Shown here: positions 9,398 through 34,822 of the stretch, piece by piece
How positions within the stretch are numbered: the first letter of the stretch is position 1
Layout of the letters: each line of letters begins with the position of its first letter
Program-made: the position numbers and the translations under genes
From: Apostichopus japonicus
Taxonomy: Eukaryota
Direction: 5' to 3'
Length of the DNA: 64,000 bases
Assembly (NCBI RefSeq): GCF_037975245.1
Contig: NC_092564.1
Location: forward strand, 11,487,891-11,551,890
Notes under the pieces: model-generated
The model's database searches: none
Seen by the model: the letters and a program-made list of their open reading frames with translations, nothing else
What the model was told of the DNA's origin: nothing

Positions 9398-9519
9398 ATC
9401 CTGTGTTGATTGTGCCTTCTGTGTCATTTATATCTGGAGAAAATGGCGTTCTCCTAGAAGCTACAGCTGGCCAAGTAGATGCTCCAGGATTCATTGAAAG
9501 GATCAACGCTGCTGCGAAG
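9398..9519 (+). CDS. UBXN4: UBXN4 orthologue exon 4
   Basis: Acceptor ctttcag|, donor AAG|GTTAGT. YPVLIVPSVSFISGENGVLLEATAGQVDAPGFIERINAAAK matches human YPVVCVPSSFFIGDSGIPLEVIAGSVSADELVTRIHKVRQ. Confidence 0.85.
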
Positions 9520-9973
9520 GTTAGTTCCCTTATTTGCTTTGGACGGTCAATTCGATACGGGATGCCTGGAAGAAAACAAGTTGATCTTCTAGTACTGTTC
9601 CGTGTACTATTTGTCCATATTTAAAGCCATAATTATATGCACAGTGGTAGTTTCCAACTTTCCCAGTAGTCAAGGACTTTGAACATGCACCAAGTTCATG
9701 AAAGATGGAAGCCTATGACCTCAGTGAACTTTGTGTAATGATTTCCTGTCATTTGTTGTATATGTACCGAATGTCAAACAGAGTTTTAGATGCTTCTCCG
9801 TATCAGAAATGTTTCTTTACTACTGTATATTTATCAAATTTCTAGTTAATATTGCATAATTATTAATCTTTTGTGTTCTACTGCTAGGTGAATCTCTTTT
9901 CTGTTGCTTTCATTATATTCTACAACAGGGTCATTTAGCGGTTCAATATATGTTTTCATTTTCTCGTTTGCAG

Positions 9974-10052
9974 ATCCAAAAAGGACAAGGAACGTCAACG
10001 ACAGATAAAAATTCAAAGCCTGAGCGTTCACAGACTACACCCGCCCAGACAG
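9974..10052 (+). CDS. UBXN4: UBXN4 orthologue exon 5 (S/T-rich linker)
   Basis: Acceptor ttctcgtttgcag|, donor CAG|GTACTA. IQKGQGTSTTDKNSKPERSQTTPAQT is a low-complexity linker like the human S/T-rich segment. Phase 0 in, phase 1 out. Confidence 0.55.
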
Positions 10053-10960
10053 GTACTACTGTTTCCTTATCACAGTCTACTTGATGTCAAGACATGAATT
10101 GCACCCATTTTGTGCTCATCAATGCAATAAAAGTATACAATAATGTGCTGTTGCTACTAGCAACATCTGTTTTTGAGGACCATGATAAGGCAATAAACAA
10201 GCTTGTACTTTCCTTCCAGGTTAATGTATGACACGATACAAATCAATTAATGCAAGTAGTAAAGCCGGAGCTCAGAAGTAAAATTTGAAAATCGCTTAAT
10301 ATATTAGAGTAACTTTTGCCCATTTTTTGTCCAGCCTGAGTTTGCTGAAATCTTTACACAAAAAAATCAAGAGACTGTTACTGAAGTTATTTACAAATTG
10401 ATCCAAGTAAGGTATCCTAGTGAAGTAGTTGATCAGAGAGTAATTTATGAGTACATGGGTGGTGACTTCAGACAGCTTTGCATATGAATTACACAATTGG
10501 CATGCCAAAGGCATATCCATAGTTTTCAACTTCTTTTACTTTTTCTTCAAAATACAGTATGTATTTGAAACTTGACTGGTCATGCCAATGAACTGTTTGT
10601 CAGTTTCTTATCCCCAGTCAATGCTAAAAGCTCTGCTTAGAGTACATGTAGTTGTTGATGATGGTTTTATGTTAATTAGAGACATTATGTTAATTAGAGA
10701 CAGCCAACTGTAATGGTTCTTGGGCAGGCAATGGAAACAAACTTGACAGTCACGTTGACAGCTTGTCATCAACGCTCTGTCGACAGATCGAATGTTTTAA
10801 TATTACTCTGTATATTGTAGAGAAGATATAATGAAAACACTTCCAACCTGTGGCAATAAATAATGATTACCAATGGCTTCTGTTTTGACAATACTAGTTA
10901 GTACCGTTGCAGAGTTTGCCGCTGAACTGTTGACAAGAAACAATTTTTTAATATTATTAG

Positions 10961-11103
10961 AGACAACATCTCCAGTCTCACCCACCCCTGAGGTCCCAGT
11001 GACAACCCCGACAGAGGAGAAAGAGAGTGTCCAAGAGAGAGCTGCACGGTTAAGGAAGAAAATGGAAGAGGTTCATGCAAAGAAAGAAGCCCAAAAGAAA
11101 GAA
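10961..11103 (+). CDS. UBXN4: UBXN4 orthologue exon 6
   Basis: Acceptor ttttttaatattattag| (alternative in-frame acceptor at 10912/10913). Donor GAA|GTATGT. Encodes ETTSPVSPTPEVPVTTPTEEKESVQERAARLRKKMEEVHAKKEAQKKE, matching the human charged coiled-coil start LEERREEKRKEEEQREIKKE. Phase 1 in, phase 0 out. Confidence 0.6.
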
Positions 11104-11639
11104 GTATGTTTTGTAGATCGTTTGTGAGAAAGTTTGTTTTGTTGGATGGTAACTCTCCCCTCACTCTTAACTCCCTTCCCCTTGCCTCACCTGCAATCAT
11201 TGACTATAGAGTGCATTTTTCATCCATGTAGTGTCCAAATTTCACTAGAAAAGGAGCATCTTGCATTGGAATCCTCAATGCTGGATTAGCTGATAGGCTG
11301 GGAGGTAAGTGCCTACGTAGTACTGTATCCCAAAGATCAAGTGGCCCCCAAGGTCAAGGGGATCACTTGGACCCAGTTTTACACTCTATGATGCCCCACA
11401 TTGAGTTGCATTGCGAGTCAAATCATTGAATCTCACAGTGTCCCCTGAACAAATTAACAACCTCATTTGAAATATTTTCTGGATCACAGAATTTAGTCGT
11501 GTCAGATGATCTGAATTTAAATCATTCAACATCAATTTTGTTTTCATTTTTTGCAGCAGATAGTTATTTGGAAACAATTGACAATCCCTTCGTGGATAAT
11601 TTACGTTTGGCTTTATACTGTTTGATACTTAATTAACAG

Positions 11640-11932
11640 ACCTTAAAGCAGAAGGAGCTTGAGAGGCGAAAGGTGGGGCAATCCATGCAGAAAGCCCAAC
11701 AGCAGAGGGCCGAGGATGAATTGAGACAGAATGCGGTAGAGAAGAGGAGGGAGAAGATGGAAGACAAAATAGCAAGACAGAGAGTTCGAGAGCAGATCGC
11801 AAGAGATCGAGCTGAGAAGGATGCCAAGTTTGCCACTGCCAGGAATGAGGAACAGAAACGTAAAACAGCAACGCAGGAAGCAAATGTTGAGCAGCAACGG
11901 GCAGATGATATAGCGAGGGCAGCAGCCAACCG
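11640..11932 (+). CDS. UBXN4: UBXN4 orthologue exon 7 (K/R/E-rich coiled coil)
   Basis: Acceptor aattaacag|, donor CG|GTGAGC. TLKQKELERRKV...AEDELRQNAVEKRREKMEDKIARQRVREQIARDRAEKDAKFATARNEEQKRK parallels human EERNREKAEDRAARERIKQQIALDRAERAARFAKTKEE. Phase 0 in, phase 2 out. Confidence 0.85.
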
Positions 11933-12571
11933 GTGAGCACTTTATCAGGTCGCTCTGATGTGGGTTATCTCCAGTAACAGTCAGGGAGAAATGGTTTAGT
12001 CTGGGCCTCTGGGGATTGCTTTTTTCATTCAGTAGGGGAAGAATTAGATGGTGGACTACTTAGTTGTCTACACATCCCTCCCCCCACCCCCCATATTTTC
12101 AACCTCACACAGAAATTCTAGAGAAGTTATTATCAGAAACATGTATTTTAACCTAAATATAGGCTAAACATGCCTCAGAATGCACCACTTGATGTAAAAA
12201 CTTCTACTTTTATCTCAGGAAGACACCAGACCCCTCTACTTAAAGTTGGCTTCAGTGATGGGAGGGTCACACACCCCTCTCCTTTATAAAATCCTTCATT
12301 TGCCTCTGACCTTTCCATAAAGGTTTATGCCCTTTATATATAAGTCAGTATGGGATAATTTAGAATTTACCCCCTCCCCCCCTCACCTTTGAAATCTTGT
12401 GCATGCCACTGCTTTAATTTGAAAGATACTACATTGCACCAATTGGCATCAAATTGTTTCTGTCAAATAAAATCTTTTAACAAACCTTTCAGTTTTGTTT
12501 ACTGAAATTACCAATCAAAATACAACTAGGGAAATGAATTTGTCTCTATTGGATCTTGATTATCTTTGCAG

Positions 12572-12674
12572 AGAGACGGCCAGGCTTCAGTTTCGCCTCC
12601 CTGATGGAAGCAAGATTCTCCATCAGTTCCCATCTTCAGCAACACTAGGAGAAGCTCGTCAATATGTCGCCGAG
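12572..12674 (+). CDS. UBXN4: UBXN4 orthologue exon 8 (start of UBX domain)
   Basis: Acceptor tatctttgcag|, donor GAG|GTGAGA. RETARLQFRLPDGSKILHQFPSSATLGEARQYVAE matches human RSTVARIQFRLPDGSSFTNQFPSDAPLEEARQFAAQ. Confidence 0.9.
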
Positions 12675-13070
12675 GTGAGAATATTAACTTGCTGCAAAAG
12701 TGCATTTCTTGAGAAATTTTTAAAATTTGCAAAAGGCCATTTCTGATGAATGACTTATAAGAAAATTGTTATCATTTAGTAGCTTTGGCAACAGCTAACA
12801 TTCCATTTTTATTGTGGAGAGGCTTTGTGGTATATCCATTCACTTTCCTCCCTGTGTAGTCTTAAGTCTTGAATTTGCATTTTTACACCAGTTTTGGTGA
12901 AGGAAAAGTACTCACTTACTGTCTGCACAGAAATATAAATGCATAAGTGAAGTTAATGAATCAGGTAGGAACAGAAAATGCAGTTACTTGTAACTTGTGC
13001 AATACGACCTTCCGGTTTGGAAAGTCACCATCAGGCTGTATCAAAGATTCTTTTTTTTTTTTACGTTCAG

Positions 13071-13202
13071 CAAGTTGGCAGTGTCCTTCAAGACTTCAGC
13101 ATGTCTACGGCTTTTCCAAGACGTCAGTTTGGCACGAGTGACATGGACACCTCGTTGCTGGACTTGCAGCTTGCCCCATCTGCTGCAGTTATCATTTTAC
13201 CA
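13071..13202 (+). CDS. UBXN4: UBXN4 orthologue exon 9 (UBX domain, continued)
   Basis: Acceptor (t)12acgttcag|, donor CCA|GTAAGT. QVGSVLQDFSMSTAFPRRQFGTSDMDTSLLDLQLAPSAAVIILP matches human TVGNTYGNFSLATMFPRREFTKEDYKKKLLDLELAPSASVVLLPA. Confidence 0.9.
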
Positions 13203-13829
13203 GTAAGTCCAGAAAAAGTTTAACTGCTTTCTAGAAGTGAGTTGATTTCTAGGAGAAATTTGTAAAAGACAGGCAAACTGATGGATCAACTTGCGGGTTT
13301 GTTAACTACCCCAGATTGCCTTGAAGCATTTGTTAAAAACTTTGCCCTTACACTGGCTGTTTACTTATGTCTTTATAACCTGATAGGGTGCAGAACATAA
13401 TAATTTTCTGTACAAGACAGCTGTACCCCCTTAAGTCCAACAGGTTAACAGTGCGTTACTAAAGGCTTTTAAGATTCGTGCATTCAACATAATAATATAT
13501 TTATTTGTCAGGAATGCTCCTATAAGGATGACGAGCATGAATATAGTGCAGGATGCTGGGTCCTACATTTTCTAAAGTTGTTAATTTAAGGCATTTGAAC
13601 AAAAAGGGCACATTGATGGATAAACCCTCTGGTGTTCACAGGATCATTTCTCCCAGACAAAGTTATTGTACCAATCTGTAGCTAGAGCTTTGTGCTCATT
13701 TGTGATGCTAATTTCCAACTTAAATGTTTGCTTGAGGGTGACTTTCTATATTGTATCTCCTCGGGAAGTAATGTCAGAAATGAATTAATGGCTTGCGGTA
13801 ACAATGTCTATATCGTTCTGTTTTAACAG

Positions 13830-14044
13830 GGGTCGCAGAGATCAAGCGCATCGACAGCTGTGGCAAGTGGAGGCGGATTAATAGCCCTGCTTCTTGCTCC
13901 CATCATTTATCTTTGGAACTTTTTATATACGTTTATTTTTGGAACACCGACAGAACACCCCGCCTCTGGTGACGTAACTTCATCCAGTCCACAAGAGCCT
14001 CCGCAGGCAGATCACTACAACACCATGGGTGCCAGACCCAAAAG
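13830..14044 (+). CDS. UBXN4: UBXN4 orthologue exon 10 (hydrophobic membrane-insertion hairpin)
   Basis: Acceptor ttttaacag|, donor AG|GTGAGT. ...GGGLIALLLAPIIYLWNFLYTFIFGTPTEHP... corresponds to human GDIWTLLGTVLYPFLAIWRLISNFLFSNPPP. Phase 0 in, phase 2 out. Confidence 0.8.
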
Positions 14045-14961
14045 GTGAGTACAAGAGCAAAAATGTACAGTATTGATATGATATGCATGTCATATTGATA
14101 TGGTTTAATACTCTTTTACTTAAGCATGCTCCTTGGAAAAGATAAGGTTTAAAAAAAATGTAATAAATTGAGACTACCTGAGCACCAGAGAGGTCATCTC
14201 TAAGAATGTGAAGAAAGAAATGTTGGCATGCCTCAGCTACAACATTTTCCTTTGGCAGGGCAGCAATCACTAGTATTTTGAAATCATTCAAGAAGAAATA
14301 AACAGCTGTGTACTACCATGCAAACAACAAGTTAGGACAGGATGCCAAAAGTATTACGGTAGATAGTTTGACAAAAGTAGAGCAAACCTTGTTAAGTTCA
14401 GGACATTAGACATATTTATAGAGTATGATATATATATATATATTCATGGAGTAAGAAAGACAATTGGGTCTTCAAAGGCCGGTCACTTTGCGAGATCATT
14501 TGTCAATTTTTTTAGCAATATGTGCACTTGGCCTGTCCCATAAAGTTGTCTAGTATAGGCAACATATCAATTTTAGGGGGCTCGGGGGAGCGGTAGCGTC
14601 CTCCAGTCAGGCTGTGTAGGACATATTCTTTTGTGCTCTCCAGTTACACACATGAGACAGCGCTGGTCTGTAGCAATAATGTCTGTTGCTTGTTGTTGAA
14701 ATCAGTCTCTGCTGCTGTGGGGTATATTGTAGCTACAGCAGATTATCTTTTTGCAGCAGGGCTCATGGGATATATACAGTCAGGTGTCAAAATATATGTT
14801 AGCATGTGTTTGCTGCATACTACAATATATTGTTAATCTTATTGTTAACAGTTCTTAAGTTATCGTGATAGGAACCTGACTTAACAGAAAATGTTTTCTA
14901 TGGTTGTCATGTTTTGTTTGTTGATTTTTTTCTTTCTTCTTTCTTCTCTCATCTCATGAAG

Positions 14962-15106
14962 TTCTTACGCCAGGAGGAGAAACCCGCCTCAGCCAGAGGG
15001 TGGATCGATCGCAAGACAAGAGGGAAATATTCACAGACTAAACAGAGATGACGACAAAGATGATGAAAATAATACTTGGAATGGGAACTCAACACAACAG
15101 ATGTAA
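14962..15106 (+). CDS. UBXN4: UBXN4 orthologue terminal coding exon (stop TAA 15104-15106)
   Basis: Acceptor (ct-rich)catgaag|. ...HRLNRDDDKDDENNTWNGNSTQQM* matches the human C-terminus YRLRTQDDGEDENNTWNGNSTQQM*. Summed CDS of the 11 exons is 1449 nt (482 aa), divisible by 3. Confidence 0.9.
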
Positions 15107-16752: not shown

Positions 16753-17162
16753 GTATTTGATCCTCAGTTGTATTTGATCCTCAGTTGTATAAAGAATGAC
16801 AGAGAGAAAGACAGACAAACTAATGAGGTGTTATCTAAACTAATTATGTATTTGATCCTCAGTTGTATAAAGAATGACAGAGAGAAAGACAGACAAACTA
16901 ATGAGGTGTTATCTAAACTAATTATGTATTTGATCCTCAGTTGTATAAAGAATGACAGAGAGAAAGACAGACAAACTAATGAGGTGTTATCTAAACTAAT
17001 TATGTATTTGATCCTCAGTTGTATAAAGAATGACAGAGAGAAAGACAGACAAACTAATGAGGTGTTATCTAAACTAATTATGTATTTGATCCTCAGTTGT
17101 ATAAAGAATGACAGAGAGAAAGACAGACAAACTAATGAGGTGTTATCTAAACTAATTAATTA
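16753..17162. repeat. Minisatellite, 78-bp unit x ~5 (near-perfect)
   Basis: Unit tgtatttgatcctcagttgtataaagaatgacagagagaaagacagacaaactaatgaggtgttatctaaactaattatg. It generates the spurious 146-aa periodic ORF 16723-17163. Confidence 0.9.
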
Positions 17163-18001: not shown

Positions 18002-18265
18002 TTATGATGATTCATATATGAACAACAAGTTACTAGCCAAACCACTTCCGGGTTCTAAATCTGCGGTATCAAGGTTAACTGTGTACTCCACGGCATCCGT
18101 TTGGCTTGTCTCGTCTTTCTTGGACATAACTGTTTGACAGAAAGCCCCCCATTTTGTGGAGACTGGCTCAGACGTATCCCAAGTTTGGTCTATCATGTCA
18201 CCTCCTGGGGCCGAGCTAGGATCAATCGCCCAACTGCAAATATTGTACACGTTGTTGGCCCATTC
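18002..18265 (-). CDS. GH81 gene terminal coding exon (stop TAA at 18002-18004, minus strand)
   Basis: Acceptor ttgattctttttttcag|. EWANNVYNICSWAIDPSSAPGGDMIDQTWD...NLLFIYESS* matches the GH81 FVxEEW C-terminal block. The 10 exons form an unbroken phase chain totalling 2302 nt. Confidence 0.8.
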   Translation of the reverse strand, partial: EWANNVYNICSWAIDPSSAPGGDMIDQTWDTSEPVSTKWGAFCQTVMSKKDETSQTDAVEYTVNLDTADLEPGSGLASNLLFIYESS

Positions 18266-18490
18266 CTGAAAAAAAGAATCAAAAAGGCATCAGAGAGTTA
18301 TGAGGTATGAAAGTAAGGAGGGCCTGGTCTCGAACAATTTTCACGACCAACTTTTGGGTCCTACCCTATAGTATGCGGAATATCGCTCTAAACCAATAGG
18401 ACCTTACTTGTATTTAAACATGTATTTGCCTGCATGTCGAGGTCCAAATATCCAAATACCAAGTGACTTCTGGTAAAGCTGGGGTCTTAC

Positions 18491-18808
18491 CTGGTCCACA
18501 TACCAATGGGAGATGGACATAATTGGTATCAATTGTATTCCTACGAGACACGCGTGACGCTGTGGGAACTGGTCGGGATCACACTCCCAGTTTATCATGT
18601 AGTAAAATATGCCATCTTCCTGTAGTTGTCCCAGAACGCCGTACTTCTTTATAGGCTCTGGGAAGATGTGGCGATTATTTTCTCGGACGGTCCAGTAGTA
18701 ACGAACTGCCCGCAGCTCAGTTGCCAACATAAGACGGCCAAACGATTCCATAACGGGATCGTTCATAGCACTTCCAAGAGCACCGAGGGCGTGGTAACAG
18801 TTGATGGC
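18491..18808 (-). CDS. GH81 gene exon (C-terminal domain, continued)
   Basis: Acceptor ttattttcctag|, donor CAG|GTAAGA. 106 codons AINCYHALGALGSAMNDPVMESFGRLML...NRHIFPEPIKKYGVLG...ACLVGIQLIPIMSISHWYVDQ matches the GH81 (D)YNFaYA..LWG and HGIQ(M/L)LP blocks. Confidence 0.85.
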
Positions 18809-19537
18809 CTAGGAAAATAAGAATATGATGTCCAGTGGACAGTTCCAAAGGTATGTACAAGGAAGGGAAGGGATGGATGTGATGGGACAGAATAGGAATT
18901 CGTCACTCATCCACAAGATTGATTTATATTTCACTAGACTGCGTGTAACGTGAGTTTCCATCATCCTGCATCGGGTCATTTGACTATTGTTATAGCTTTC
19001 ATCAAAGGAAATTTTGACCGAAATTGTCTACCAACTTCTTCCCTATTTAGCTATTAATGAGCTAGTTTGTCTAGCAACATTACTGAGTAGAATTGATCAG
19101 TTCAACAAGCCTCGATTCCAGCCACTTGAAATAATTTCCTCTTATGTGGCAATTCAGATGACTTCGTACAAGTATACCCATTGCGTTTAATCAATGGGAA
19201 GTGTTTGCGAACATTTGTTGCGGGATTGTAAATATTAAAACAACGTGACATCGTTGACCTACGATTTACCACCATCGGCACGCCCCCACACCCCATCAGA
19301 GGTCTAAGTCAAAGGTCACCAGTGCATTGTTTTAAAAACGTAAAACTCTCAAGGGGGCTTAAAAATTACAAAATATCTTAACATTTTAATCATGACTGCT
19401 TAACAGAAGTAAATGCTGTGTGGTTGACAATGGAACTGTTTGACCACAATTGGCCTTTCTCTTTAGGGATGTGGGGGGGGGGGGGGGGCGCATATTTGGG
19501 GATAATGAAGATTACATCATTAGTCGAAAAATCGTAC

Positions 19538-19695
19538 CTCACTAGCTGATTCTTCTTGTCTAGCGCCTCCACCGATCCCAGTAGCCCATGATGATCCAAA
19601 ATACCAATCCTTCTGCCTTACAGTTGGGAAATACACATCTTTCTTACTTGGATTCCCGATATCTCTGGCGAGTGACGTAATGCGAATTCTGTTAT
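19538..19695 (-). CDS. GH81 gene exon with RDxxNP...FP...HSWAxG...ESxSE catalytic motifs
   Basis: Acceptor ctcgcacag|, donor GAG|GTACGA. (D)NRIRITSLARDIGNPSKKDVYFPTVRQKDWYFGSSWATGIGGGARQEESASE matches GH81 LVRDxANP..DPYFP..RxFDWyhGHSWAxG..DGKDQESsSE, which includes the catalytic glutamates. The acceptor was chosen among three in-frame AGs by spacing between DPxW and LVRD. Confidence 0.8.
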
Positions 19696-20326
19696 CTGTG
19701 CGAGTAAAGTTTTTGAAATCACAACAAATTTCAACTAGCAAAAATGTGCCGTCTAATTGTGTGTCAAGAAGGGCTGTGAAACAAATTTTTCAGCTCTTAT
19801 ATTATATATATAATATTTAAGTATGAATAAATTTATTCACATACCTTGTGCATCTCTGTACCATATATATTCTGTAGCATATATATATAGCCTACACTCA
19901 ACTGATACAGTGGCTTGAATATTCATAAAGCAAGTCTCATGTCATGCAAGTCAGAGCAGCCAAACGAGAAATGGAGTTCAGTAAATAGGAACGTCAAAAC
20001 GTGTCATCATAATATTATTGCTTTTTAACTATTGTGTTTAGGGGAGAGTAGTTTGATGGGCGGCAATTTACAGCTCAAGTTTACAATTATGATATTAATT
20101 TTCTGCATTGACAAATGTGTAATCTCAAAGAAAGTGTACTGAAGAAAATGGGGCAGAGGGTAAAGACCCAAACTGTATGATACCCGTGGGATCGATCAGA
20201 ATTGTTTTTCAGTCACTAAAGGCCTACGTCTAAAATAATGACTAAGTTGCAGTCATTCTGATCGTAGTTCAAAGTAAGTCTTTAGTAACGTCAGCATCTT
20301 CCGAAGAACTTGTCCGTTATACTCAC

Positions 20327-20502
20327 CTTCTTTGTTAGCCCATTCTGGATAATATTTAGCGTAGTAGGCAATAGCGTAGATCCAATATCCAATATGAAAG
20401 TGGTGATCCGCATAGGAAACAAAGCCAAAGTTTGTCCAAGGAAAGATAGGTTCGTTTAATCCAGCACTACGCATGTACATACCTCCCCACACAGTATCAT
20501 AC
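20327..20502 (-). CDS. GH81 gene exon with the YxDHHFHxGY signature
   Basis: Acceptor ttttccttactag|, donor G|GTGAGT. (R)YDTVWGGMYMRSAGLNEPIFPWTNFGFVSYADHHFHIGYWIYAIAYYAKYYPEWANKE contains the GH81 hallmark YNDHHFHYGY(F/W)IYAAA...DPxW. Phase 2 in, phase 1 out. Confidence 0.9.
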
Positions 20503-20756
20503 CTAGTAAGGAAAATGTGTATGAGAGACCAAGCATTGTTCAGTCTCTTTGGTCTTTAGCTTAAACATTAGCAGCCATGATTATATGACAACAAAGAGTA
20601 TGTTAACTGACTTTTCGGAGAATAAATTAACGTCAACATATCACCCCACCAACACCCAAGCGCACCCCGTTCCCAAACACCATTGTATCATAAAGGGACC
20701 TCTATTCTAAAGGTTTCCAGTGTGGGCGGAGGGTTATCGTATGGCGATAGTCATAC

Positions 20757-20992
20757 CTGAACACGTTTTCGACTGGTAGACCACTCGTTATGCCAAGCCA
20801 AAGATCTAGGCATGTTCGCAAGGATTCATCCAGTTCCACATAATGATTCGTTCCAAAGGCTCTGGATATGGTTGCTAGACGGGTTACCATAGAGATACTT
20901 TTACCCGCCCAATAACTTTGAGCTCCTGATTTGGTACAATCCTCCACCAGCGTCTCAAATGCAGCGTCTTTTTCAATTGACGCGAGAATGTG
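20757..20992 (-). CDS. GH81 gene exon (start of C-terminal (alpha/alpha)6 catalytic region)
   Basis: Acceptor ttttctacccaacag|, donor AG|GTATGA. HILASIEKDAAFETLVEDCTKSGAQSYWAGKSISMVTRLATISRAFG...LPVENVF(R). Splicing to the next exon restores the GH81 FRYDxxWGG motif; read-through instead hits a stop. Confidence 0.8.
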
Positions 20993-21745
20993 CTGTTGGG
21001 TAGAAAACGATTGAAATTAAAGAGTACGTACCAGTGGATATGATGATTGGTTTGGAAATTGATTGGAACGGAGCAACTTATTATTGTTGGGGAAACGGCC
21101 AATATATACTTGTCTCATTCTCTTGTTCTTTGTTCAACCCGACTTTCAATTTCAGGAAGAGAGAGGAGGGGGGGGGGGGGGTGGCTACCGTATTCTTTTG
21201 TGAGAGCATGTGTGTGTGAGTGGGGAGAAATAGGAGAGAATGAACGCCATTGCTATTACTACTAACCTAAAGAGAATGCTTAAATAATCGTGACCCTCTT
21301 TTTAAAGGGTTATTCTTCTACTACCCATAGATAGGCCGATCTAAGGATCTGCTTAGGACGTAACGTTTCTCGTATATCAAAGGAATTTCTTCTAGCACAA
21401 GACTAAAGGGTGACTCCCCACCCCGTTCCTCTGCGTTGCTTCTACCTTTTCATGGTATCTCATATGTAAGGAACCTGTATGACTTTCATATTATTTTTCG
21501 TTAACAAAGTGGTTGGAATTTGAAAAAAGAGTTTATTTTGATGGTGCAAAAGTATTGTCTAAGGATCTTTACGCATGATCTTTACGGCTACAACATTATC
21601 ATATAGTAAGGTCCTGGCATGAGATCCCAAAGGATTAAAAAGGTTCAAGAATCCTATATCACGTCTCTCCAAACACCGTCAACATTTACAAAGTAACAGT
21701 ACAAAGTATTAGTTTTAACTCGATAGCAATGTCCAATTTACTTAC

Positions 21746-21904
21746 ATTCAAACGGTCAGGAGTACTCTTGATTCTGTTCACAGCATCCATATCTGGTTCA
21801 AGGCTTGATATCGGGAGCTCTTCTTCCAGGATCCATCGGTCTCCCACGTGACCTTTAAACCCCCATGGGGTATCTATGAGGTTACTTGCCTCTAGTTGCT
21901 CATC
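21746..21904 (-). CDS. GH81 gene exon (linker region)
   Basis: Acceptor tcctctttctttcag|, donor AAT|GTAAGT. DEQLEASNLIDTPWGFKGHVGDRWILEEELPISSLEPDMDAVNRIKSTPDRLN. Phase 0 in and out. Confidence 0.7.
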
Positions 21905-22317
21905 CTGAAAGAAAGAGGATACATGATGAGTAGGCCTAATACTAATAAACGAACATGTGAATAACAATGGTCCACACAATTCCAAAGAATTGTAGTGCTA
22001 GCGTCTGTGCTTGTATTTGAGTACATTTTCCGTACTCATACTCATGGATTTGTACTCCAGTTGTACTAATTTGCACGCTCCCCAGCTCACCGGTCCACCG
22101 AGCCACCGGCCCACCGGGCATGCCTAAATGCCCGTGTGGCCAGTCCGCCACCGTTGACTGCTTTGTGGCCGTTATTTCCGGCGTAGGTTGACATTTTTTC
22201 TTTATCCAACTGTAGTGAAAACCGCAAATAAATTAGTAGTCTTTCTATAGCGTGGATCCGGCCATGCGCAAGTTTCGTTGATTTTTTTGACATCAATTTT
22301 AATTACATAATACTCAC

Positions 22318-22514
22318 GTGATGAGGTAGTGCTACCATTAGTAAATCATGATTGGGATTCTGTCCGAAGAAATCTTCTCCTCGTTTATTCCAATCATAGC
22401 TAATTCGTCCGACGTCTCCTTCCACACAAAAACGTGTCTTTGGTTTATAGGAGTAGACCCCTGCGTATTTATCTAATCTTTCCGCCATCGTGTAGTCCCC
22501 TTTAGCACTGGTAC
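22318..22514 (-). CDS. GH81 gene exon carrying the ALPHH motif
   Basis: Acceptor cgttgctag|, donor CAC|GTGAGT. ...TSAKGDYTMAERLDKYAGVYSYKPKTRFCVEGDVGRISYDWNKRGEDFFGQNPNHDLLMVALPHH ends in the GH81-conserved LM(Y/V)ALPHH motif. Phase 1 in, phase 0 out. Confidence 0.8.
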
Positions 22515-22599
22515 CTAGCAACGATTAAAAGCAACCAAACTGGTAAAGAAATAGCTGTGGACGCTTAAGATCAAACACTTTAACAGTACGTAACGGTAC

Positions 22600-22602
<3 letters not shown>

Positions 22603-22680
<78 letters not shown>

Positions 22681-22801
22681 TTATATATATATATATTTAT
22701 ATATTTATATATTTATATATTTATATATTTATATATTTATATATTTATATATTTATATATTTATATATTTATATATTTATATATTTATATATTTATATAT
22801 A
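22603..22801. repeat. (TA)n then (TATATATTTA)n compound microsatellite
   Basis: Direct read. Lies in the GH81 intron between the exons at 22514 and 23165. Confidence 0.95.
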
Positions 22802-23164
22802 TTGATGGGCTGATAGTGAATCAATTTTGTATAGTAACTACTAATCTCTTACCAAGGCTCTATAACTTGATTGACTTTTTTGGAAAGTGCGGTACCTTAC
22901 GCAAATAAAAATGATTGAAATTGCCCACACACACACTTTGGAAAACATTTTGCTAAGGAGCATTTTTTTAGCCTTTCTTGATCTGCTAATTGCATATATG
23001 CATAACACACAATTTTGCGAATTCTTTTTAACACGTGGCCTCCTCCCCATCCATTTAGAAGTTAGTACAATTAATCAAAACATATCAACAACTTTGGGAC
23101 ATTGGCCGTTTTCCATGAACAATTCCCTGTTTCCTAAGTTGAATATATCTTGTTTGATATTTAC

Positions 23165-23390
23165 CTGCATAGACAAGTTGCATATGTCCAGTAAACATGC
23201 CACCGGCTTGTGGTTCAAATTCAAACAACCCGTCATCATTGATTTCAACTACCATGTCCTTGTCGAAATAAGCCACAAATTTCCGAGTATTGGTTAAACC
23301 AAGTCCTCCTGGTTCGTTTAGTTCAAATATGAAAGATTTTGCTGTAATGGAAATATCTTGGGTGGTCTCTGGAACCCACGGACATTTTAT
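23165..23390 (-). CDS. GH81 gene exon (N-terminal beta-sandwich region)
   Basis: Acceptor (t)16acacgttag|, donor G|GTAAAT. IKCPWVPETTQDISITAKSFIFELNEPGGLGLTNTRKFVAYFDKDMVVEINDDGLFEFEPQAGGMFTGHMQLVYA. Phase 0 in, phase 1 out. It joins the next exon to create the codon GGT. Confidence 0.65.
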
Positions 23391-24394
23391 CTAACGTGTA
23401 AAAAAAAAAAAAAAAGAAGTTGAATGTAATATTAAAGTAAGATACAACTATTGTTTCAATAGCCAGGTACACAGCTAAGCTTAGATGCACGGATTGGCTT
23501 CAAACTCGAGATGCATCCATCCGCTTTCATCGCCTTCAGAGCCGACCTAAATTCTTAAGCCTTTTACCAGGGTGTCATCTTTAATGCTACATAAAGCTCT
23601 GTTATCACGTCCCTTCAAACCACTCTACCCTCCCTCATTTCACCCTGTGGGAATTGGTTCAAAAAGCGAAAACGTTTGAGAGGATCCACTTCTACTGTGT
23701 GTAGGTCAAGGTATTTTTGCTGGGAGTTATAAGTTTTCAAGCATGCAAGCGTTGGTTTGCAACGACATGTTATTGAATTTTCGACATTCGCTCATATGCA
23801 AATATATACGCATAATAGGATGGTAAAAAAATACACCTGGCGATTTAAATCAAACATGTCCGCACACCAAAGAATATTTAGTTGGTTAAGAGAAGGGAAC
23901 GAGCAATAGGATGGGACACTATTTGGGTCTCGTAATTTGAGTGAAATAAATCCAAATGGTGTATCACCATTCGGTCTATTAAAGTTTGCTATATGTAATA
24001 GGCTATAAGTCATAGCCTAATAAAGCATCCTAAATGGCTTTGTATATATACTAGTTTGTACGGACACCACCTTCAGCAAGGTACTGTACCTGTTCCATCG
24101 CTGCAGATAAGATATTGGGAATCATGACTATGTTCGTAGTTTCGGCAAACGAGAGACACACTAGTCTGTATGTAGAGAGGTAGAGGAACACGTCTCACAT
24201 ACCCTAGCCTGGCTACGAGACTGATACCATTGCCAACTGTGTCCAATACAATACCATACATCACCCCAGCTATGTATAACGACTAAGATAGACTTATTAG
24301 ACTCGAGTATGGGCATTAATCATATTCACATTATATTGTTTTATTCACTTTACAGTGGCCATATTTATGTTAATTTATGTTTTTATGTTCTTTT

Positions 24395-24650
24395 TGTTGT
24401 GGTTTATTATACCCTGTCTTATATCATGTTTTACTTTTACTGCTGTTGTTATTACTTTGAGGTTTTCTTAAGTTTGGTAATTTTATATTCCAGATTTTGG
24501 TTCTTTTGTACAGTGCTCTTGAGCATGTTTTACTTTTACTGCTGTTGTTATTACTTTGAGGTTTTCTTAAGTTGGGTAATTTTATATTCCAGGTTTTGGT
24601 TCTTTTGTACAGTGCTCTTGAGCATGTTTTATTTTATGATAACAGCACTA
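24395..24650. repeat. Tandem repeat, ~107-bp unit x ~2.4
   Basis: gcatgttttacttttactgctgttgttattactttgaggttttcttaagtt(t/g)ggtaattttatattccag(a/g)ttttggttcttttgtacagtgctcttga duplicated. Explains the spurious ORF 24309-24653. Confidence 0.85.
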
Positions 24651-25017
24651 TAATATATGGTATTTATATATTTATTGCAAGGGCAAAATTCATTGAAAAT
24701 ATCCGAAAGTATGTGACCTCAGTTAGATGAAGCTCAGTCCAGAAAGATGCCCTAAACGATGTGGCTATACTTGGGAAACTTTTGCAATACCTCAAAAACA
24801 AACTGGCTTCATAAATGAAATTAGAGATTTGTTTGAATTCATGGGAAATGCACTGATTGGCGTGTTCCATACCCCATAATACATCATGGCTCACAATGGG
24901 TATATCTAGGCCTGAGTAGGGTATCTAAGCCATGTTATGGAAGTAAAACGAAGCTTTCGATCAAAGTTAATTTGATAACTTGATAACTAACTAACTTTAT
25001 TTCTTGAATAAGCGTAC

Positions 25018-25227
25018 CTCTTTTGGTTGACGCCTCCAGTTCCACGGCTCTGACTTTATTATAAACTGACCATGTACGTTGGCTGCAAAATAAGTGACCT
25101 CACTAGTGGGTGTTAACGTAAAGACGACATTCATCCCGCCATCGATCAATTGGCAAACGTCCGGGGTGCAGGGGATCCATTCATGATCAGCCGTCCAACC
25201 ATCAGATGCGACTAACATGTAATCAAT
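25018..25227 (-). CDS. GH81 gene exon (N-terminal domain)
   Basis: Acceptor ttttacttcacctctag|, donor GAG|GTACGC. 70 codons IDYMLVASDGWTADHEWIPCTPDVCQLIDGGMNVVFTLTPTSEVTYFAANVHGQFIIKSEPWNWRRQPKE. Phase 0 in and out. Confidence 0.55.
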
Positions 25228-25750
25228 CTAGAGGTGAAGTAAAACAAGATGATATAAGTATACTATCTCCTCTTGTTCTCCTTTTAAATACTTATCAATT
25301 GTTGCTAAATGTTCTTACCACGAGGAAATGGCAATGATACGGGCCTACATGGACCCACCTGTTATTTTTCTTTCTTTCTGCGGGACAGATATTACCAAAA
25401 CTATACTTTTCTGACAATTTCAGGCATTCATTAGTTTACAGCTCATGTTGGTCGGGGAAACTACTGGAGGGATCCTATCACAATAATTCTTAACTTCATA
25501 GTAACGCATCAAGTTTTTGTCTTTCCAGAATTATAGTAAAAAGAACGAGACCGTGGGAGATGGAAACCATGTAATGTCTTTAATTTTGAAATATTTTTAC
25601 AGAAGTATAGGAAAATCTATTGGCTATGATTATTGGTTTTATGTGGATTGCCAAAAACATGATTACGATGATGTTTTAAGAGTTTTTTGGAGGGAGCAGG
25701 GGGAGGGGCTGACATGTGTTTGGCATCAACAGCATTTCCAATATACATAC

Positions 25751-26108
25751 TTCGTCCAGAAACTGTGCAGCATTGCTCAGTGAGAGTGTGACATCAACCA
25801 TGGCATCTGATAAGTCATTTCCATGACACTGAGCATTTGTTATGGTAGCGGTACCGTAGAACCACACGGGCATTTTACCAGCGTACATGGTAACCATCGA
25901 GGGAGTGCTGACACAGGTTGTAAGGGCTGGGTTTGGTATGTACCAGTAGGTGTAATCGCTCTGAGGGATCACTAACATATTCACGATGTTAATGGCGAAC
26001 GCCATCGTGCCATTTGCATCCGGTATGTTGATGGTAACAGTCATACCGTCACTGGCCAAAGTGCATACAGTTTCATCACACATCTTCATTTGACTAGAGG
26101 AATCCCAC
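25751..26108 (-). CDS. GH81 endo-1,3-beta-glucanase gene, most upstream exon recognised (N-terminal domain; 5' exon(s) not found)
   Basis: Minus-strand acceptor aacctgcag| and donor GAA|GTATGT. 119-codon open frame (WDSSSQMKMCDETVCTLASDG...NAAQFLDE). Phase 2 in, phase 0 out, consistent with the downstream chain. Assignment to GH81 rests on frame continuity, not on a recognised motif. Confidence 0.55.
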
Positions 26109-26590
26109 CTGCAGGTTGAGAACGAAACACGAATGGGTTCAATGCTTCTACTGATATAATATTAAACAATTACAATGTAAGAATGGGTTCAATGCCTCAA
26201 TGCTTCTACTGGTATAATCTTAAACAATTACAATATACGAATGGGTTCAATGCTTCAATGCTCAATGCTTCTACTGGTATAATATTTAACAATTACAATA
26301 TACGAATGGGTTCAATGCTTCAATGCTCAATGCTGCAATTATTCTACTGGTATAATCTTAAACAATTACAATGTACGAATGGGTTCAATGCTTCAATGCT
26401 CAATGCTTCAATGCTTCTACTGGTATAATATTAAACAATTACAATATACGAATGGGTTCAATGCTTCAATGCATCAATGCTTCTACTGGTATAATATTAA
26501 ACAATTACTATGTACGAATGGGTTTAATGCTTCAATGCTCAATGCTTCAATGCTTCTACTGATATAATATTAAACAATTACAATGTACGA
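26105..26590. repeat. Tandem array, ~60-70-bp unit x ~7 (aatgggttcaatgcttcaatgcttctactggtataatattaaacaattacaatatacg)
   Basis: Direct read. Begins immediately upstream (minus-strand sense) of the acceptor of the most 5' GH81 exon found. Confidence 0.9.
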
Positions 26591-27214
26591 GGTGCAACGA
26601 ATAGCAAAGAAGATGATGAATTATAAGGAGACCAAAAAAATTCAGAGTAATTCAGATTAGTGGCAAAACAGAGAATGGAATTGTACGCAGTCGAAAAATG
26701 AAAAAAATATGAGGAGTGTTGAATGATACTTTAGAAACAGGGCTTGCGGTAATTTTTGTTGAACATTTTCGAAATATTAAAAGCATTGCGATGTCGGCAC
26801 AATCGTGAATATGTAGGTGTTCCTAGCTCCAAAGTTCATAAAAGGATTGAATAAGCCATTTTTTTGGGCGAGTATTGTTTATAATGATGATCAATTTTTA
26901 AACCCGATTGCTTCATTTAATACGAAATCTTACTCTGATTCGACGGCAGCAGCATATTGTACGTCTGTGAGCATAGGAATCCGTTTAGTTGCGTGCACCA
27001 CAAGGGATAAGACACCCTCGTCGCTATTACACGACACTTCAGTATAGGCAGTGCCATCGTCAGCCTCTGTCGACATGAAGTAAACATATATTTAGAAATC
27101 AAATGAATTTTATAGTTTGTGTTATACATGAGAGTAACGTTGAGGAGATTAACCCAGAGCAGTCACATTTGTAAATAAAGAAAAAGAAGGAGAAGAAGGA
27201 AATGGAAATATAGT

Positions 27215-27225
<11 letters not shown>

Positions 27226-27306
<81 letters not shown>
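27226..27306. repeat. (TA)40 microsatellite
   Basis: Direct read. Adjacent to the tRNA-like sequence. Confidence 0.95.
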
Positions 27307-27310
<4 letters not shown>

Positions 27311-27359
27311 TATACGTATTTGAAATTGTAGTGAGTTGGAAGAACAGTGAAATATTTCC

Positions 27360-27430
27360 AGCCTCCACCGGGATTCGAACCCGGGCATCCCGCTTTATAT
27401 GTGGACACCTAACCACTAGACTATGGACGC
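27360..27430 (-). tRNA. tRNA-like sequence (anticodon AUA; probable tRNA pseudogene or SINE head)
   Basis: Minus-strand GCGTCCATAGTCTAGTGGTTAGGTGTCCACATATAAAGCGGGATGCCCGGGTTCGAATCCCGGTGGAGGCT folds as a cloverleaf. T-arm CCGGG/GTTCGAATC/CCCGG, D-loop AGTGGTTA. The acceptor stem has one G-G mismatch and the anticodon stem one A-C mismatch. Anticodon AUA (Tyr codon UAU) is not used by canonical tRNA-Tyr (GUA). The sequence is immediately followed on the minus strand by a long (TA)n tract. Confidence 0.45.
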
Positions 27431-27682
27431 TGATTGTCTGATTGTATGTCCAGAGGTTTTAAACCGGTAAGGAAGGTGGTAATTCCACTGTAGGCGTATG
27501 TCGTCGGTATCGAACAATACTAGTTCTATTTTTGGTGACATATTTTGCCTTACTCTATAGATCAAACATGATGGCGATGCTAACCAACTCGAAATCATTT
27601 GTGATCCCTAAAGCCGGATCTCGAAAGAGATACTTTTAACAGACTTTGTTAATGAAACGGAGGTAATAATATATATAAATCT

Positions 27683-28672
27683 AACAGGTAACACCACTGG
27701 CGGATCCAAGGGGGGGGGCCAAGGGGGGCCATGGCCCCCCCCCCCAAAGGTGAGCCAAAAAGTGTTTCCGAACATCCGCTAAATCATATGATTGGAAATT
27801 AAAAAAATCGAGAGGAATAGCAGTGGTAGACTAGTCTAAATCTTTTCGTTTTCTGTTTTAAAATTAAATGCAGAGCTCCCAACTGACCCGTAATTCGCGG
27901 GAATTAGACCCGCATTCTAACACCCAAACCCGCTGACCCGCACAAGCGTCCGAAAAAACCGCATTGTAATTGGCAAGTATACATAACAAAATATGCATCA
28001 AATTTTGACTTAGCAACCATCATTTCTTTAGCATTTAGCATAATAGAGTATAAAACCTCCTTTACAGCATCATTTGAACCTCAAATTAGCCTATAATTCT
28101 TTTCATTGGGGCGAGCAGCGAACATTTTCATGCCACGGGAAAGAATGAATTATCACCTACTATTCAATTTATTGATGTTACACACAAAAAAATGCATATT
28201 TCTCAGAAAATTTTGGGTGACAAAAGCCACCATTTTACATGTAGGCATCACCAGGATTCCAAAAAAATCAAAAGTTCCTTATACCCCTCCCCCAGGACGG
28301 CGATTCGTGGCATGGACCAGCATTTGCCTTCTCAAGAGTTGGGAGCTATGTAAATGTATGAGCATGAGGATTTACAGTTTATAACACCATTTTGCAGTTA
28401 CAGGCTGGTTGTAAGAAATTTATAACCTATAGAGAAATAAAATTTCTTGAGAAAGATGATCCCAACTTTGTTTTATAAATATTTTAGAAAATTACACCTG
28501 GGAAACATTTTTTTAGAAGTAAATTAACATCACCATTGTACACTTTTGTCTCACCAAATTGCATCTGAGGGCATTCAGCAATAGCAAATTTTCCTTAGAC
28601 CCCTCCCCCATATCACTCTAATGCCACTTTGGCCCCTCCCAAACAAAGGCCCTGGATCCGCCAGTGGGTAAC
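27683..28672. mobile_element. ~990-bp non-autonomous DNA-transposon-like element with GGATCC-containing TIRs
   Basis: Left end CAGGTAACACCACTGGCGGATCCAAGGGGGGGGG (27680-27713) is the inverted complement of the right end GGCCCTGGATCCGCCAGTGGGTAACACAGG (28640-28670). Subterminal inverted GAGCTCCCAACTG / CAGTTGGGAGCT copies at 27873 and 28330. No intact ORF inside. Confidence 0.55.
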
Positions 28673-28680: not shown

Positions 28681-29000
28681 CTAAAAATTACATTGTGACA
28701 AACGTTTTAACTTTGCAAGATAACATTCTATTCTGCGCATGGACCATGATATGTACGTACTTGTTTCTTCCTCTGGACACTCATAGCTCACGTTTTCACC
28801 GTTGATGGCGGTGAGACAATATGGTGTAATGATAGGGTTTGCATTGTTGAAGATATGGGTCAGCATCGCGCTACCTCTGACCAATGGTAGCTCTAAACTG
28901 CCTTGATCGTTTTGATACATGAAGTCAGCATACATAATATCGAAATCAACCATTTCAGCATCGCCAGAATCTTGAATCCCGACTCGAATACCAGTCAATC
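28681..29000 (-). CDS. Unassigned coding exon, possibly terminal (stop 28681-28683); internal candidate donors at 28792 and 28761
   Basis: Acceptor attcactttcag|. Phase 1 in is compatible with the 31313 donor, giving a Gly codon. (G)LTGIRVGIQDSGDAEMVDFDIMYADFMYQNDQGSLELPLVRGSAMLTHIFNNANPIITPYCLTAINGENVSYECPEEETSTYISWSMRRIECYLAKLKRLSQCNF*. No recognisable domain. Confidence 0.4.
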
Positions 29001-31312: not shown

Positions 31313-31507
31313 CAGAGAAAGTTGAGAGTGGAGATCCATCTGGCCCAGAATTTGTCTGCTGCATGCCCCCTCCAATTTCAGTTATTTTATCCCAAGGCAT
31401 ACCGTCCCTTCCAGGTGTCAGCTGATAAAATTCATCGGTTCTCGCGGGATCTGTCCATCTGTCTAAGGTGTAAGACTCATATATTATCCCTCTCTCGTCC
31501 ATGATAG
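31313..31507 (-). CDS. Unassigned coding exon (phase 1-1), same reading-frame chain
   Basis: Acceptor attctacacag|, donor TCTG|GTATGT. (A)IMDERGIIYESYTLDRWTDPARTDEFYQLTPGRDGMPWDKITEIGGGMQQTNSGPDGSPLSTFS. Confidence 0.45.
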
Positions 31508-32456: not shown

Positions 32457-32675
32457 CCGAATGAGGGAACAACCGTATTGGAGATGGCCCAATGTTAATT
32501 TGGTTTGAAGCAAAGTGTCCTGTCGGCAAGGCAGTCTGTTCTCTAAGATTACCTGTCCTAACTGGAGGACAAACGTCATTGAGGTCCGTAGAGGTTCCAA
32601 ATATACCAGAAACATCTTTCATTGAATAAATCGAGTCTTGTAGTTGTATACACGTAGGTGGCAGTCCGCCCATGT
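32457..32675 (-). CDS. Unassigned coding exon (phase 1-1), probably downstream part of the Kunitz gene
   Basis: Acceptor ttgtttatttcgacag|, donor TCGG|GTAAGT (alternative ACAG|GTAATC at 32553). Open frame (D)MGGLPPTCIQLQDSIYSMKDVSGIFGTSTDLNDVCPPVRTGNLREQTALPTGHFASNQINIGPSPIRLFPHS. Phase-compatible with the 33016 donor upstream and the 31507 acceptor downstream. Confidence 0.45.
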
Positions 32676-33004: not shown

Positions 33005-33183
33005 TTAGCTCTCACCTCCACATCTGCTCTCACAATCATCTTCACTCCTGAAATTATTGCCATTTCCTTCACAACCTCCGTATTCGAATACGTCACACTT
33101 CCCGGAGGGTGTATCGAAGTACCATCTGAGCTCTACTGCGTCACAGGGACCGACCTCAGCCGGAAGTGTACATACGTCTTCCA
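33005..33183 (-). CDS. Kunitz/BPTI domain exon (domain 2); ends at TAA 33005 or splices on at alternative phase-1 donor 33016
   Basis: Acceptor ctcgacag|. MEDVCTLPAEVGPCDAVELRWYFDTPSGKCDVFEYGGCEGNGNNFRSEDDCESRCGGES*. Second full Kunitz cysteine pattern. A good donor GGAG|GTGAGA sits 11 nt before the stop and is phase-compatible with the exon at 32675. Confidence 0.75.
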
Positions 33184-34078: not shown

Positions 34079-34249
34079 TTTGTCCGTGACAAATCTCTTG
34101 GCATTCTTCTCTGGTCATAAAATTATTTTCGTTTCCTTCACATCCTCCGTAAATGAATTCTACACATTCTTCTCGAAGTGGGTCGTATGCCCATCGGGGC
34201 ATGTAGGCTTCACATGGACCGGATGTTATAGGAAGACGACAGTTACCGC
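34079..34249 (-). CDS. Kunitz/BPTI domain exon (domain 1)
   Basis: Acceptor tttctttgttgacgttag|, donor CAAA|GTAAGT, phase 1-1. (G)[56 protein letters not shown] has canonical Kunitz six-Cys spacing C-x8-C-x15-C-x7-C-x12-C-x3-C plus the YGGC motif. Confidence 0.8.
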
Positions 34250-34611: not shown

Positions 34612-34822
34612 CTATCTCCGGCGAGGATGAAGGGGTTCCCTCAAGAGGTTCCGCGTCTTCAGACGTATCCCTGAATCCATAGTAGCAAACCAAAATAAAA
34701 GCCGTAGCAACAATAAGCACCCCCAGTACGATGAAGAAAGTTGTCCAGCCACTTTTCGACTTTGTTTTACTCTCATAACTTTCGGCTGGAACACTCATTT
34801 CATATTTTTCGTTCTTTTCCAT
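34612..34822 (-). CDS. Kunitz-domain membrane protein, exon 1: cytoplasmic tail plus signal-anchor TM helix
   Basis: First in-frame ATG is at 34822-34820 (minus). MEKNEKYEMSVPAESYESKTKSKSGWTTFFIVLGVLIVATAFILVCYYGFRDTSEDAEPLEGTPSSSPEI. Donor ATAG|GTGGGT, phase 1. A 23-residue hydrophobic stretch follows a charged N-terminal tail. Confidence 0.55.

Follow-up and report, generated by a model that had tools for sequence, protein, structure and literature searches.

An intact 17-exon GH81 gene with Kunitz modules and a predicted membrane anchor in Apostichopus japonicus

A 64,000-nucleotide stretch of the Apostichopus japonicus genome (contig NC_092564.1, positions 11,487,891 to 11,551,890; hereafter the window, to whose numbering all coordinates refer) carries on its minus strand a gene of glycoside hydrolase family 81 (GH81), a family for which endo-beta-1,3-glucanase is the only activity reported (PMC9609564). 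It is a real, intact and ordinary host gene, neither a recent import nor a contaminant, and an uncharacterised member of a known, already annotated invertebrate GH81 family. Taken as a whole, the evidence is very probably best explained by an intact 17-exon host gene for a membrane-anchored Kunitz-GH81 beta-1,3-glucanase belonging to an old bilaterian family. Its product would run from a lysine-rich tail and a signal-anchor helix through two Kunitz modules to a complete GH81 region, the latter comprising an N-terminal sandwich, a linker and an (alpha/alpha)6 barrel.

Gene structure and domain composition

The coding sequence (3639 nt, specifying 1212 amino acids, aa) is distributed over 17 exons and 16.8 kb, from an ATG at 34822 that is preceded by an in-frame stop, to a TAA whose last base is at 18002 (Table 1). 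All 16 introns are GT-AG (32 correct splice sites), with phases, in order, of 1, 1, 1, 1, 1, 1, 2, 0, 0, 1, 0, 0, 2, 1, 0 and 0. A first-pass annotation, made from the letters of the window, had delimited a gene at 18002-26108 as ten minus-strand exons in one unbroken frame, and these are present, each with its AG acceptor and GT donor; joined, their 2302 nt give 766 codons followed by TAA, the alternative frames having 57 and 39 stops. The GH81 motifs that it had listed were also recovered, namely LLMVALPHH, FRYDTVWGG, YADHHFHIGYWIYAIA, LARDIGNP...VYFP...DWYFGSSWATG, EESASE, NCYHALGALG, GIQLIP and DQEW, with FRYDTVWGG being created only by the 20757/20502 splice. Real as that span is, it is incomplete and covers only the C-terminal 63% of the protein, the start codon, the anchor, both Kunitz domains and the first half of the GH81 N-terminal domain lying outside it. 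The 5' incompleteness follows from the first of the ten exons being internal, since it begins at an AG acceptor in phase 2, and from homologs being 1,000-1,250 aa long. With P0001 (1216 aa), the closest homolog, as tblastn query, seven further upstream exons were located in the window, and the borders were then refined. An ATTAAA is present 228 nt past the stop codon, at about 17773.

With regard to family membership, the spliced 766-aa protein already exceeds the gathering scores of both GH81 families in Pfam (Glyco_hydro81C, E 2.4e-48; Glyco_hydro_81, E 3e-6), as the GH81 assignment of the ten-exon model had implied, and the 1212-aa protein gives E 6e-48 for the C-domain (PF17652) and E 1.3e-10 for the N-domain (PF03639). 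PF17652 scores 164-166 bits against a cut-off of 25.6; PF03639 scores 41.4 bits on the full protein against a cut-off that is also 25.6, its match being in two stretches because the N-terminal domain is interrupted. The best PDB sequence matches are likewise GH81, with RmLam81A (1.9e-22) followed by CtLam81A and BhGH81. In a 15-sequence alignment the catalytic residues D940, E1015 and E1019 are conserved, and are invariant or nearly so. Opposite ADHHFH of the window protein is SDHHYH, and RQE-E-SAS-E is aligned both with RDQ-E-SVP-E of RmLam81A and with NNQ-A-SSS-E of 6fop, the E515A mutant of CtLam81A, in which E1015 is opposite the mutated E515.

With fungal RmLam81A (4k35, 5xbz) and the bacterial CtLam81A (6fop) and BhGH81 (5t49) the window protein has in common the DHH(F/Y)H and E-x3-E catalytic motifs and, as judged from structure models, a predicted three-domain fold of beta-sandwich, linker and (alpha/alpha)6 barrel (Foldseek E 1e-15 to 1e-22), at 13-18% structural-alignment identity and about 27% locally. 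An AlphaFold2 (AF2) model of its 760 C-terminal residues (predicted local distance difference test, pLDDT, 72) has 15 Foldseek matches in the PDB at E <= 0.001, every one of them GH81 (E 7e-19 to 1e-14; template modelling, TM, score 0.47-0.60). A model of the full-length Lytechinus ortholog (pLDDT 68; predicted TM score, pTM, 0.63) matches RmLam81A at TM 0.68-0.71 and E 5e-22, with Fab-like and Kunitz matches besides those to GH81. Unlike the window protein, the three microbial enzymes are soluble and are without Kunitz modules and without the two inserted beta-sandwich modules considered below.

The segment at aa 24-52 is the sole strongly hydrophobic one in the protein (the only Kyte-Doolittle segment above 1.6, with a peak of 2.86), and the tail ahead of it, 23 residues long, is lysine-rich. 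A type II membrane protein with a single signal anchor is the predicted, and highly likely, topology, and its ectodomain would hold 32 cysteines. Both Kunitz domains are recognised by Pfam (Kunitz_BPTI, PF00014, E 1e-39 over two stretches), with six cysteines to be read in each, and each has a phase 1-1 exon of its own, the classic exon-shuffling unit. P1, the residue after the second cysteine, is acidic in both modules, and in those of P0001 too. An acidic P1 is unusual in inhibitory Kunitz domains. The basic P1 of trypsin-type inhibitors is found in neither module as read from sequence, and trypsin-type inhibition is therefore unlikely.

A different type of addition is internal to the hydrolase. 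Some 230 residues, without a match to any Pfam family even when E is relaxed to 10, interrupt the GH81 N-terminal domain and comprise two related tandem Cys-rich units (alike at BLASTP E 4e-6, with cysteine spacing conserved). A profile hidden Markov model (HMM) built from unit 2 detects both copies in the window protein, at aa 429-496 (E 2.7e-16) and aa 556-640 (E 2.7e-33). When the HMM was run on other GH81 proteins, at least one copy was found in 14 of 14 from animals and in none of five from elsewhere: there are two in every echinoderm and mollusc protein, three each in Glandiceps, Lingula and Owenia, at least two in amphioxus and one in the second Lingula paralog, with none in the giant-virus, ENA-contig, fungal, Volvox or Copromyxa proteins. 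Among the sequences so tested, the modules appear only in animals. The inserted region is all-beta in the Lytechinus AF2 model, with tandem immunoglobulin-like (Fab) Foldseek matches, and the modules may bind carbohydrate.

Table 1. Exons of the GH81 gene and the neighbouring UBXN4 ortholog, in window positions
Feature	Position	Strand	Content and basis
Exon 1	34612..34822	-	ATG, predicted cytoplasmic tail and signal-anchor helix (aa 24-52); donor GTGGGT, leaves phase 1; tblastn with P0001
Exon 2	34079..34249	-	Kunitz/BPTI module 1, phase 1-1, six Cys, Glu at P1; Pfam, splice sites
Exon 3	33016..33183	-	Kunitz/BPTI module 2, phase 1-1, Asp at P1; tblastn, splice sites, Pfam
Exon 4	32457..32675	-	Start of region common to all animal GH81 (GGLPPTC...); 86% identity to P0001; introns on either side both found in other species too
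Exon 5	31313..31507	-	GH81 N-terminal beta-sandwich, first part; next intron (aa 322, phase 1) in 6/6 genes
Exon 6	28761..29000	-	GH81 N-terminal beta-sandwich, first part; next intron (aa 402, phase 1) in 6/6 genes
Exon 7	26934..27066	-	Start of inserted Cys-rich module 1; module HMM match aa 429-496
Exon 8 (first exon of the ten-exon model)	25751..26108	-	Remainder of inserted module 1 and linker
Exon 9	25018..25227	-	Inserted Cys-rich module 2, aa 556-640; internal repeat, module HMM
Exon 10	23165..23390	-	GH81 N-terminal domain resumes (FIFELNEP...)
Exon 11	22318..22514	-	GH81 N-terminal domain to LLMVALPHH; Pfam Glyco_hydro_81 best stretch aa 696-783; next intron in 6/6 genes
Exon 12	21746..21904	-	Linker domain; next intron in 6/6 genes
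Exon 13	20757..20992	-	(alpha/alpha)6 catalytic domain begins; Pfam Glyco_hydro81C aa 850-1133
Exon 14	20327..20502	-	FRYDTVWGG (spans junction) and YADHHFH with Asp940
Exon 15	19538..19695	-	SSWATG and RQEESASE with Glu1015 and Glu1019; aligned to CtLam81A and RmLam81A
Exon 16	18491..18808	-	Catalytic domain, NCYHALGALG ... GIQLIP
Exon 17	18002..18265	-	C-terminal helices; TAA stop at 18004-18002
UBXN4 ortholog, 3' part	9412..15106	+	Coiled-coil exons; UBX exons ~12567-12668 and ~13089-13205; hydrophobic hairpin exon ~13860

Animal relatives, shared introns and origin

The first-pass annotation had placed GH81 outside the usual metazoan repertoire, which proves to be wrong, as there are orthologs in echinoderms, a hemichordate, amphioxus, molluscs, brachiopods and annelids. 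The named best matches are all from echinoderms, at 49-58% identity to echinoids, asteroids, a holothurian and crinoids, and the echinoderms represented are the sea urchins Lytechinus (57% identity), Diadema and Strongylocentrotus, the sea stars Patiria and Acanthaster, the crinoids Antedon and Anneissia, and the sea cucumber Holothuria (a fragment). Named orthologs from further afield are from Glandiceps (hemichordate) and Branchiostoma (cephalochordate), the molluscs Lottia, Patella, Mizuhopecten, Argopecten, Ylistrum and Plakobranchus, the brachiopod Lingula (two genes) and the annelid Owenia. The Holothuria fragment and Closterium were among the nine matches listed from a profile search with the full alignment. 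GH81 has been listed in mollusc genomes, where its expression is mainly in hepatopancreas (PMC7560691), and in clitellate annelid transcriptomes (PMC11083476); echinoderm GH81 was not found as the subject of any paper in the literature searched. The scaffolds bearing the orthologs are 0.47-76 Mb in size, and ordinary animal genes (Med14, a MAGUK kinase, Tctex-1, an LYR-motif gene and an SRCR/7TM receptor) are near the ortholog in three of five loci. At the Lytechinus locus no neighbour gene was called within 10 kb.

Full-length similarity to the echinoderm orthologs (Lytechinus variegatus LOC121410825, P0003; Diadema antillarum, P0004; Antedon mediterranea, P0006; Patiria miniata LOC119729546, P0005) extends to the same order of anchor, (Kunitz) and GH81, and to the two inserted Cys-rich modules. 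The number of Kunitz exons is two in the window gene and in P0001, one in Lytechinus, Diadema and Antedon, and none in Patiria. Mollusc, brachiopod, annelid, hemichordate and amphioxus GH81 (including Branchiostoma C3ZD25) belongs to the same clade and has the same catalytic residues, the inserted module (1-3 or more copies) and the five introns dealt with next, but is without Kunitz modules and is at 36-47% identity. What is echinoderm-specific, and of modest interest, is the anchor-plus-Kunitz architecture.

For the intron map, the exact exon chains of five ortholog genes and the window gene (six in total) were placed on the protein alignment. Matches in both position and phase to an intron of another species exist for 14 of the 16 window introns (13 of 16 in Lytechinus, whose gene likewise has 17 exons, and 13 of 16 in Patiria), and the two that are unshared flank the Kunitz exons. 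Five introns, after aa 322, 402, 777, 830 and 1020, are common to all six genes, from echinoderm, hemichordate, mollusc and brachiopod, and an intron-bearing animal gene therefore predates the split between deuterostomes and spiralians. The introns, described earlier as host-like, are spliceosomal, are in phases 0, 1 and 2, and largely coincide with those of other animals. The choice that had been offered between an old acquisition and a lineage-retained gene is narrowed to the extent that an animal gene with introns was present before that split and recent horizontal transfer is excluded.

Intactness can also be judged from a relative. A 4152-nt intronless Logan contig (SRR29838370) has an uninterrupted 3651-nt open reading frame (ORF) for a 76%-identical ortholog, P0001, and is therefore a transcript; its comparison with the gene model is gap-free across 15 of the 16 junctions. 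Between the two coding sequences, the proportions of nonsynonymous (pN) and synonymous (pS) differences are 0.155 and 0.83, giving a pN/pS of about 0.19 (used in place of dN/dS, synonymous sites being saturated), which indicates strong purifying selection. Third-position GC content (GC3) is 0.434 in the GH81 exons versus 0.444 in the exons of the neighbouring UBXN4 gene, while the GH81 introns are 35% GC.

A recent, lineage-specific acquisition from a fungus or bacterium would accord with GH81 being best known from fungi, plants and bacteria, and a separate recent transfer has been reported for the GH81 of a copepod (PMC12198962). However, for the window gene it is very improbable, given a best fungal match of 27% identity versus 49-58% for other echinoderm classes, 16 introns of which 14 are at positions found in other animals, host-like codon composition, and the monophyly of 16 animal GH81 sequences in 50 of 50 bootstraps of a neighbour-joining (NJ) tree. 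Still harder to credit is an assembly chimera, a contaminant or a decaying pseudogene. The sequence is unbroken to UBXN4, 2.9 kb away; orthologs are on large to chromosome-scale scaffolds in six other animals; and intron 6 holds two fragments (27699-27745, 47 nt, and 28277-28305, 29 nt) of a repeat dispersed in the window, although these are a weak host marker. Against decay are the intact 1212-codon ORF, the full set of correct splice sites and the pN/pS value. The first-pass conclusion of an integrated gene and not contamination thus withstands scrutiny, on the grounds of animal neighbour, spliceosomal introns and GC3 like that of UBXN4.

A further alternative concerns the origin of the family and not the present nature of the gene. 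A single very old transfer into the stem lineage of bilaterians, with an alga, an amoeba or a giant virus as the donor, might account for the whole animal clade, introns and beta-sandwich inserts being gained later, and this is a possibility to be entertained only tentatively. An exhaustive HMMER scan of 1.84 billion representatives with the animal profile yielded 2,949 hits, in which animal-type scores of about 390 bits or more are followed by a sharp fall to 324 bits (Volvox) and lower. All named hits at or above about 390 bits belong to bilaterian animals, and no cnidarian, sponge, ctenophore, placozoan or choanoflagellate is among the named high scorers, several top hits being unnamed. In the NJ tree (132 core domains, 439 columns, 50 bootstraps), the animal clade has P0035 as its sister in 36 of the 50 replicates and P0034 in 15. 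The former is a gene on a compact, intron-poor 822-kb metagenomic contig (ENA ERZ25039465 contig_88582) whose other genes are eukaryote-type (a Sec2p/Rab3A-like gene, CorA, ribosomal L11), and the latter is on a compact, intron-poor 548-kb contig deposited as uncultured (giant) virus (GCA_943297745.1 OW988992.1). Also close are Amoebozoa (Copromyxa, Amoeba proteus) and MMETSP protists, with the lone fungal sequence in the set being 95th of 131 by distance. While all of this favors an old transfer, the tree is NJ only, with 439 columns and a long stem, the support for a sister group is split, many top hits are unnamed, and the absence from non-bilaterian animals depends on database content. Moreover, Fungi and Amoebozoa both have GH81, which makes vertical descent with losses equally simple. 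Both histories fit the data, a very old transfer with a virus or microbial eukaryote as donor and vertical descent accompanied by losses and long branches. A fuller scenario, in which bilaterian GH81 goes back not to the opisthokont ancestor but to a single Precambrian transfer, its donor being an alga, amoeba or giant virus and its recipient the stem bilaterians, and in which intron gain, acquisition of the animal-only module and the echinoderm fusion to an anchor and acidic-P1 Kunitz modules came later, is more doubtful again.

Separately, a locust GH81 (P0045; Schistocerca gregaria LOC126323934, on a 256-kb contig) is outside the animal clade, among protist-like sequences, and could be either a separate acquisition or a contaminant scaffold.

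Proposed function

Conservation of the DHHFH Asp and of the two Glu in E-x3-E makes it most likely that beta-1,3-glucan is hydrolysed by the ectodomain, and the activity expected by homology, EC 3.2.1.39, is a likely one. The enzyme would cut its substrate internally, this being algal or diatom laminarin or chrysolaminarin, or fungal wall glucan. Both laminarin and chrysolaminarin rank with the most abundant polysaccharides of the sea, their digestion by animals usually being credited to GH16 enzymes, and such animals take in algal and diatom laminarin as a major glucan of their diet. The anchor would keep the enzyme at the cell surface, where gut epithelium is the most plausible site, and by analogy with molluscs the chances that the role is digestive are about even. 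It is possible, though doubtful, that the Kunitz modules protect from proteases; protection specifically from proteases other than those of trypsin type, or docking, is speculative. Membrane anchor and Kunitz modules would be later, echinoderm-side additions via exon shuffling.

The protein might instead be mainly a surface pattern-recognition receptor that binds beta-glucan, in the manner of the soybean GH81 glucan-binding protein (GBP), and not a digestive enzyme. It is predicted to be membrane-anchored with a cytoplasmic tail, its extra beta-sandwich modules could bind carbohydrate, and soybean GBP, itself a GH81, is described as a bifunctional binding protein in an entry of the reference list of PMC9609564. 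Soybean GBP is likewise eukaryotic and cell-surface-associated, though of the plant lineage and with no shared architecture, its receptor role being taken from the literature. However, conservation of the three catalytic residues and the motifs around them in about 15 animal sequences points to retained hydrolysis, and the tail of about 23 residues has no signalling domain recognisable by Pfam. In addition, the hemichordate, mollusc and brachiopod orthologs, which are without Kunitz modules, may be secreted, as would fit an enzyme; the N-terminus of the hemichordate protein has a short hydrophobic stretch resembling a cleavable signal peptide, and no tail-plus-anchor. A receptor as the main function is accordingly improbable, and an anchored glucanase is the preferred interpretation.

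There are, nevertheless, several considerations that count against an anchored digestive glucanase with Kunitz modules. The gene model and the P0001 transcript differ by a 3-aa indel in the linker beside the exon 1/2 junction, and transcription is known from the ortholog of a related species, not from the source species. No biochemically characterised animal GH81 was found in the searchable literature, the characterised enzymes being fungal, soybean and bacterial only (PMC9609564). The putative digestive role is extrapolated from the mollusc expression data, the predicted membrane topology is based on hydropathy alone, and confidence in the structure models is only moderate (pLDDT 68-72). Glu or Asp at P1, as read in the Kunitz modules, is also atypical for trypsin-type inhibitors.

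The surrounding locus and significance

Tail-to-tail with the GH81 gene is the 3' part of an ortholog of UBXN4 (UBXD2/erasin), whose exon borders are approximate. This neighbour had been reported at 2.9 kb in the first-pass annotation, and the two stop codons are indeed 2,895 bp apart, the last UBXN4 exon ending ...NTWNGNSTQQM in its frame translation, with the stop at 15104-15106. Its UBX domain (Pfam 2.4e-19) is nearest to human UBXN4 (2kxj, 1.3e-24) and mouse UBXD2 (2.2e-24), with other UBX proteins at 1e-4 or worse, and the succession of UBX domain and hydrophobic hairpin identifies the gene as UBXN4. No UBXN4 was found within 10 kb of the GH81 ortholog in Lytechinus, Patiria, Glandiceps, Lottia or Lingula; the adjacency is therefore lineage-specific and uninformative on gene age.

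The spacer between the two genes has a perfect (100% identical) array of 5.0 copies of a 78-bp unit at 16769-17158 and one of 3.6 copies of a 115-bp unit at 15618-16039, with 83% matches. Within the GH81 introns there are a 58/73/139-bp satellite at 26138-26590, directly upstream of the exon 8 acceptor, (ATATATTT)x25 at 22603-22800, a 99-bp x 2.2 duplication at 24425-24636, (TA)45 at 27217-27306 and (TA)83 at 34356-34519. A minus-strand tRNA-Tyr with anticodon ATA, called by ARAGORN at 27359-27431 in intron 6 beside (TA)45, is probably a false positive in AT-rich sequence. The dispersed repeat, of about 100 bp, has at least eight copies (75-90% identical, in both orientations) within 1-5500 and one at 60120-60240, and a 570-bp segment at 791-1361 is duplicated at 4027-4585.

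Upstream of the GH81 gene are five minus-strand ORFs (43652-43897, 44840-45070, 50298-50624, 59162-59485 and 63096-63341), each of which resembles a signal-anchor first exon in encoding a Met, a short tail of polar residues and a hydrophobic helix. The last two both have VVLWYGLTEG[ML]PIFRTFG, being 82% identical across 57 nt, and both end at a GTAAG donor that leaves phase 1, as accepted by GH81 exon 2. All five could be first exons of unannotated genes. That they are alternative first exons of GH81 is less likely, the phase fitting in two of the five and support being absent from any ortholog or transcript.

From a broader perspective, this locus shows an intact GH81 gene, kept under constraint, to be among the genes routinely carried by echinoderms and by at least five other phyla of invertebrates. 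For annotation, a lesson is that horizontal transfer should not be proposed for a 'microbial-looking' carbohydrate-active enzyme (CAZyme) of an invertebrate until the gene has been compared with those of other invertebrates and its introns have been examined for conservation. Biochemical work has two well-defined objects here, the inserted modules specific to animals and the fusion of anchor and Kunitz modules in echinoderms. Were the Precambrian transfer with its subsequent fusions to prove true, it would have produced a laminarinase of the cell surface without counterpart in any other kingdom.

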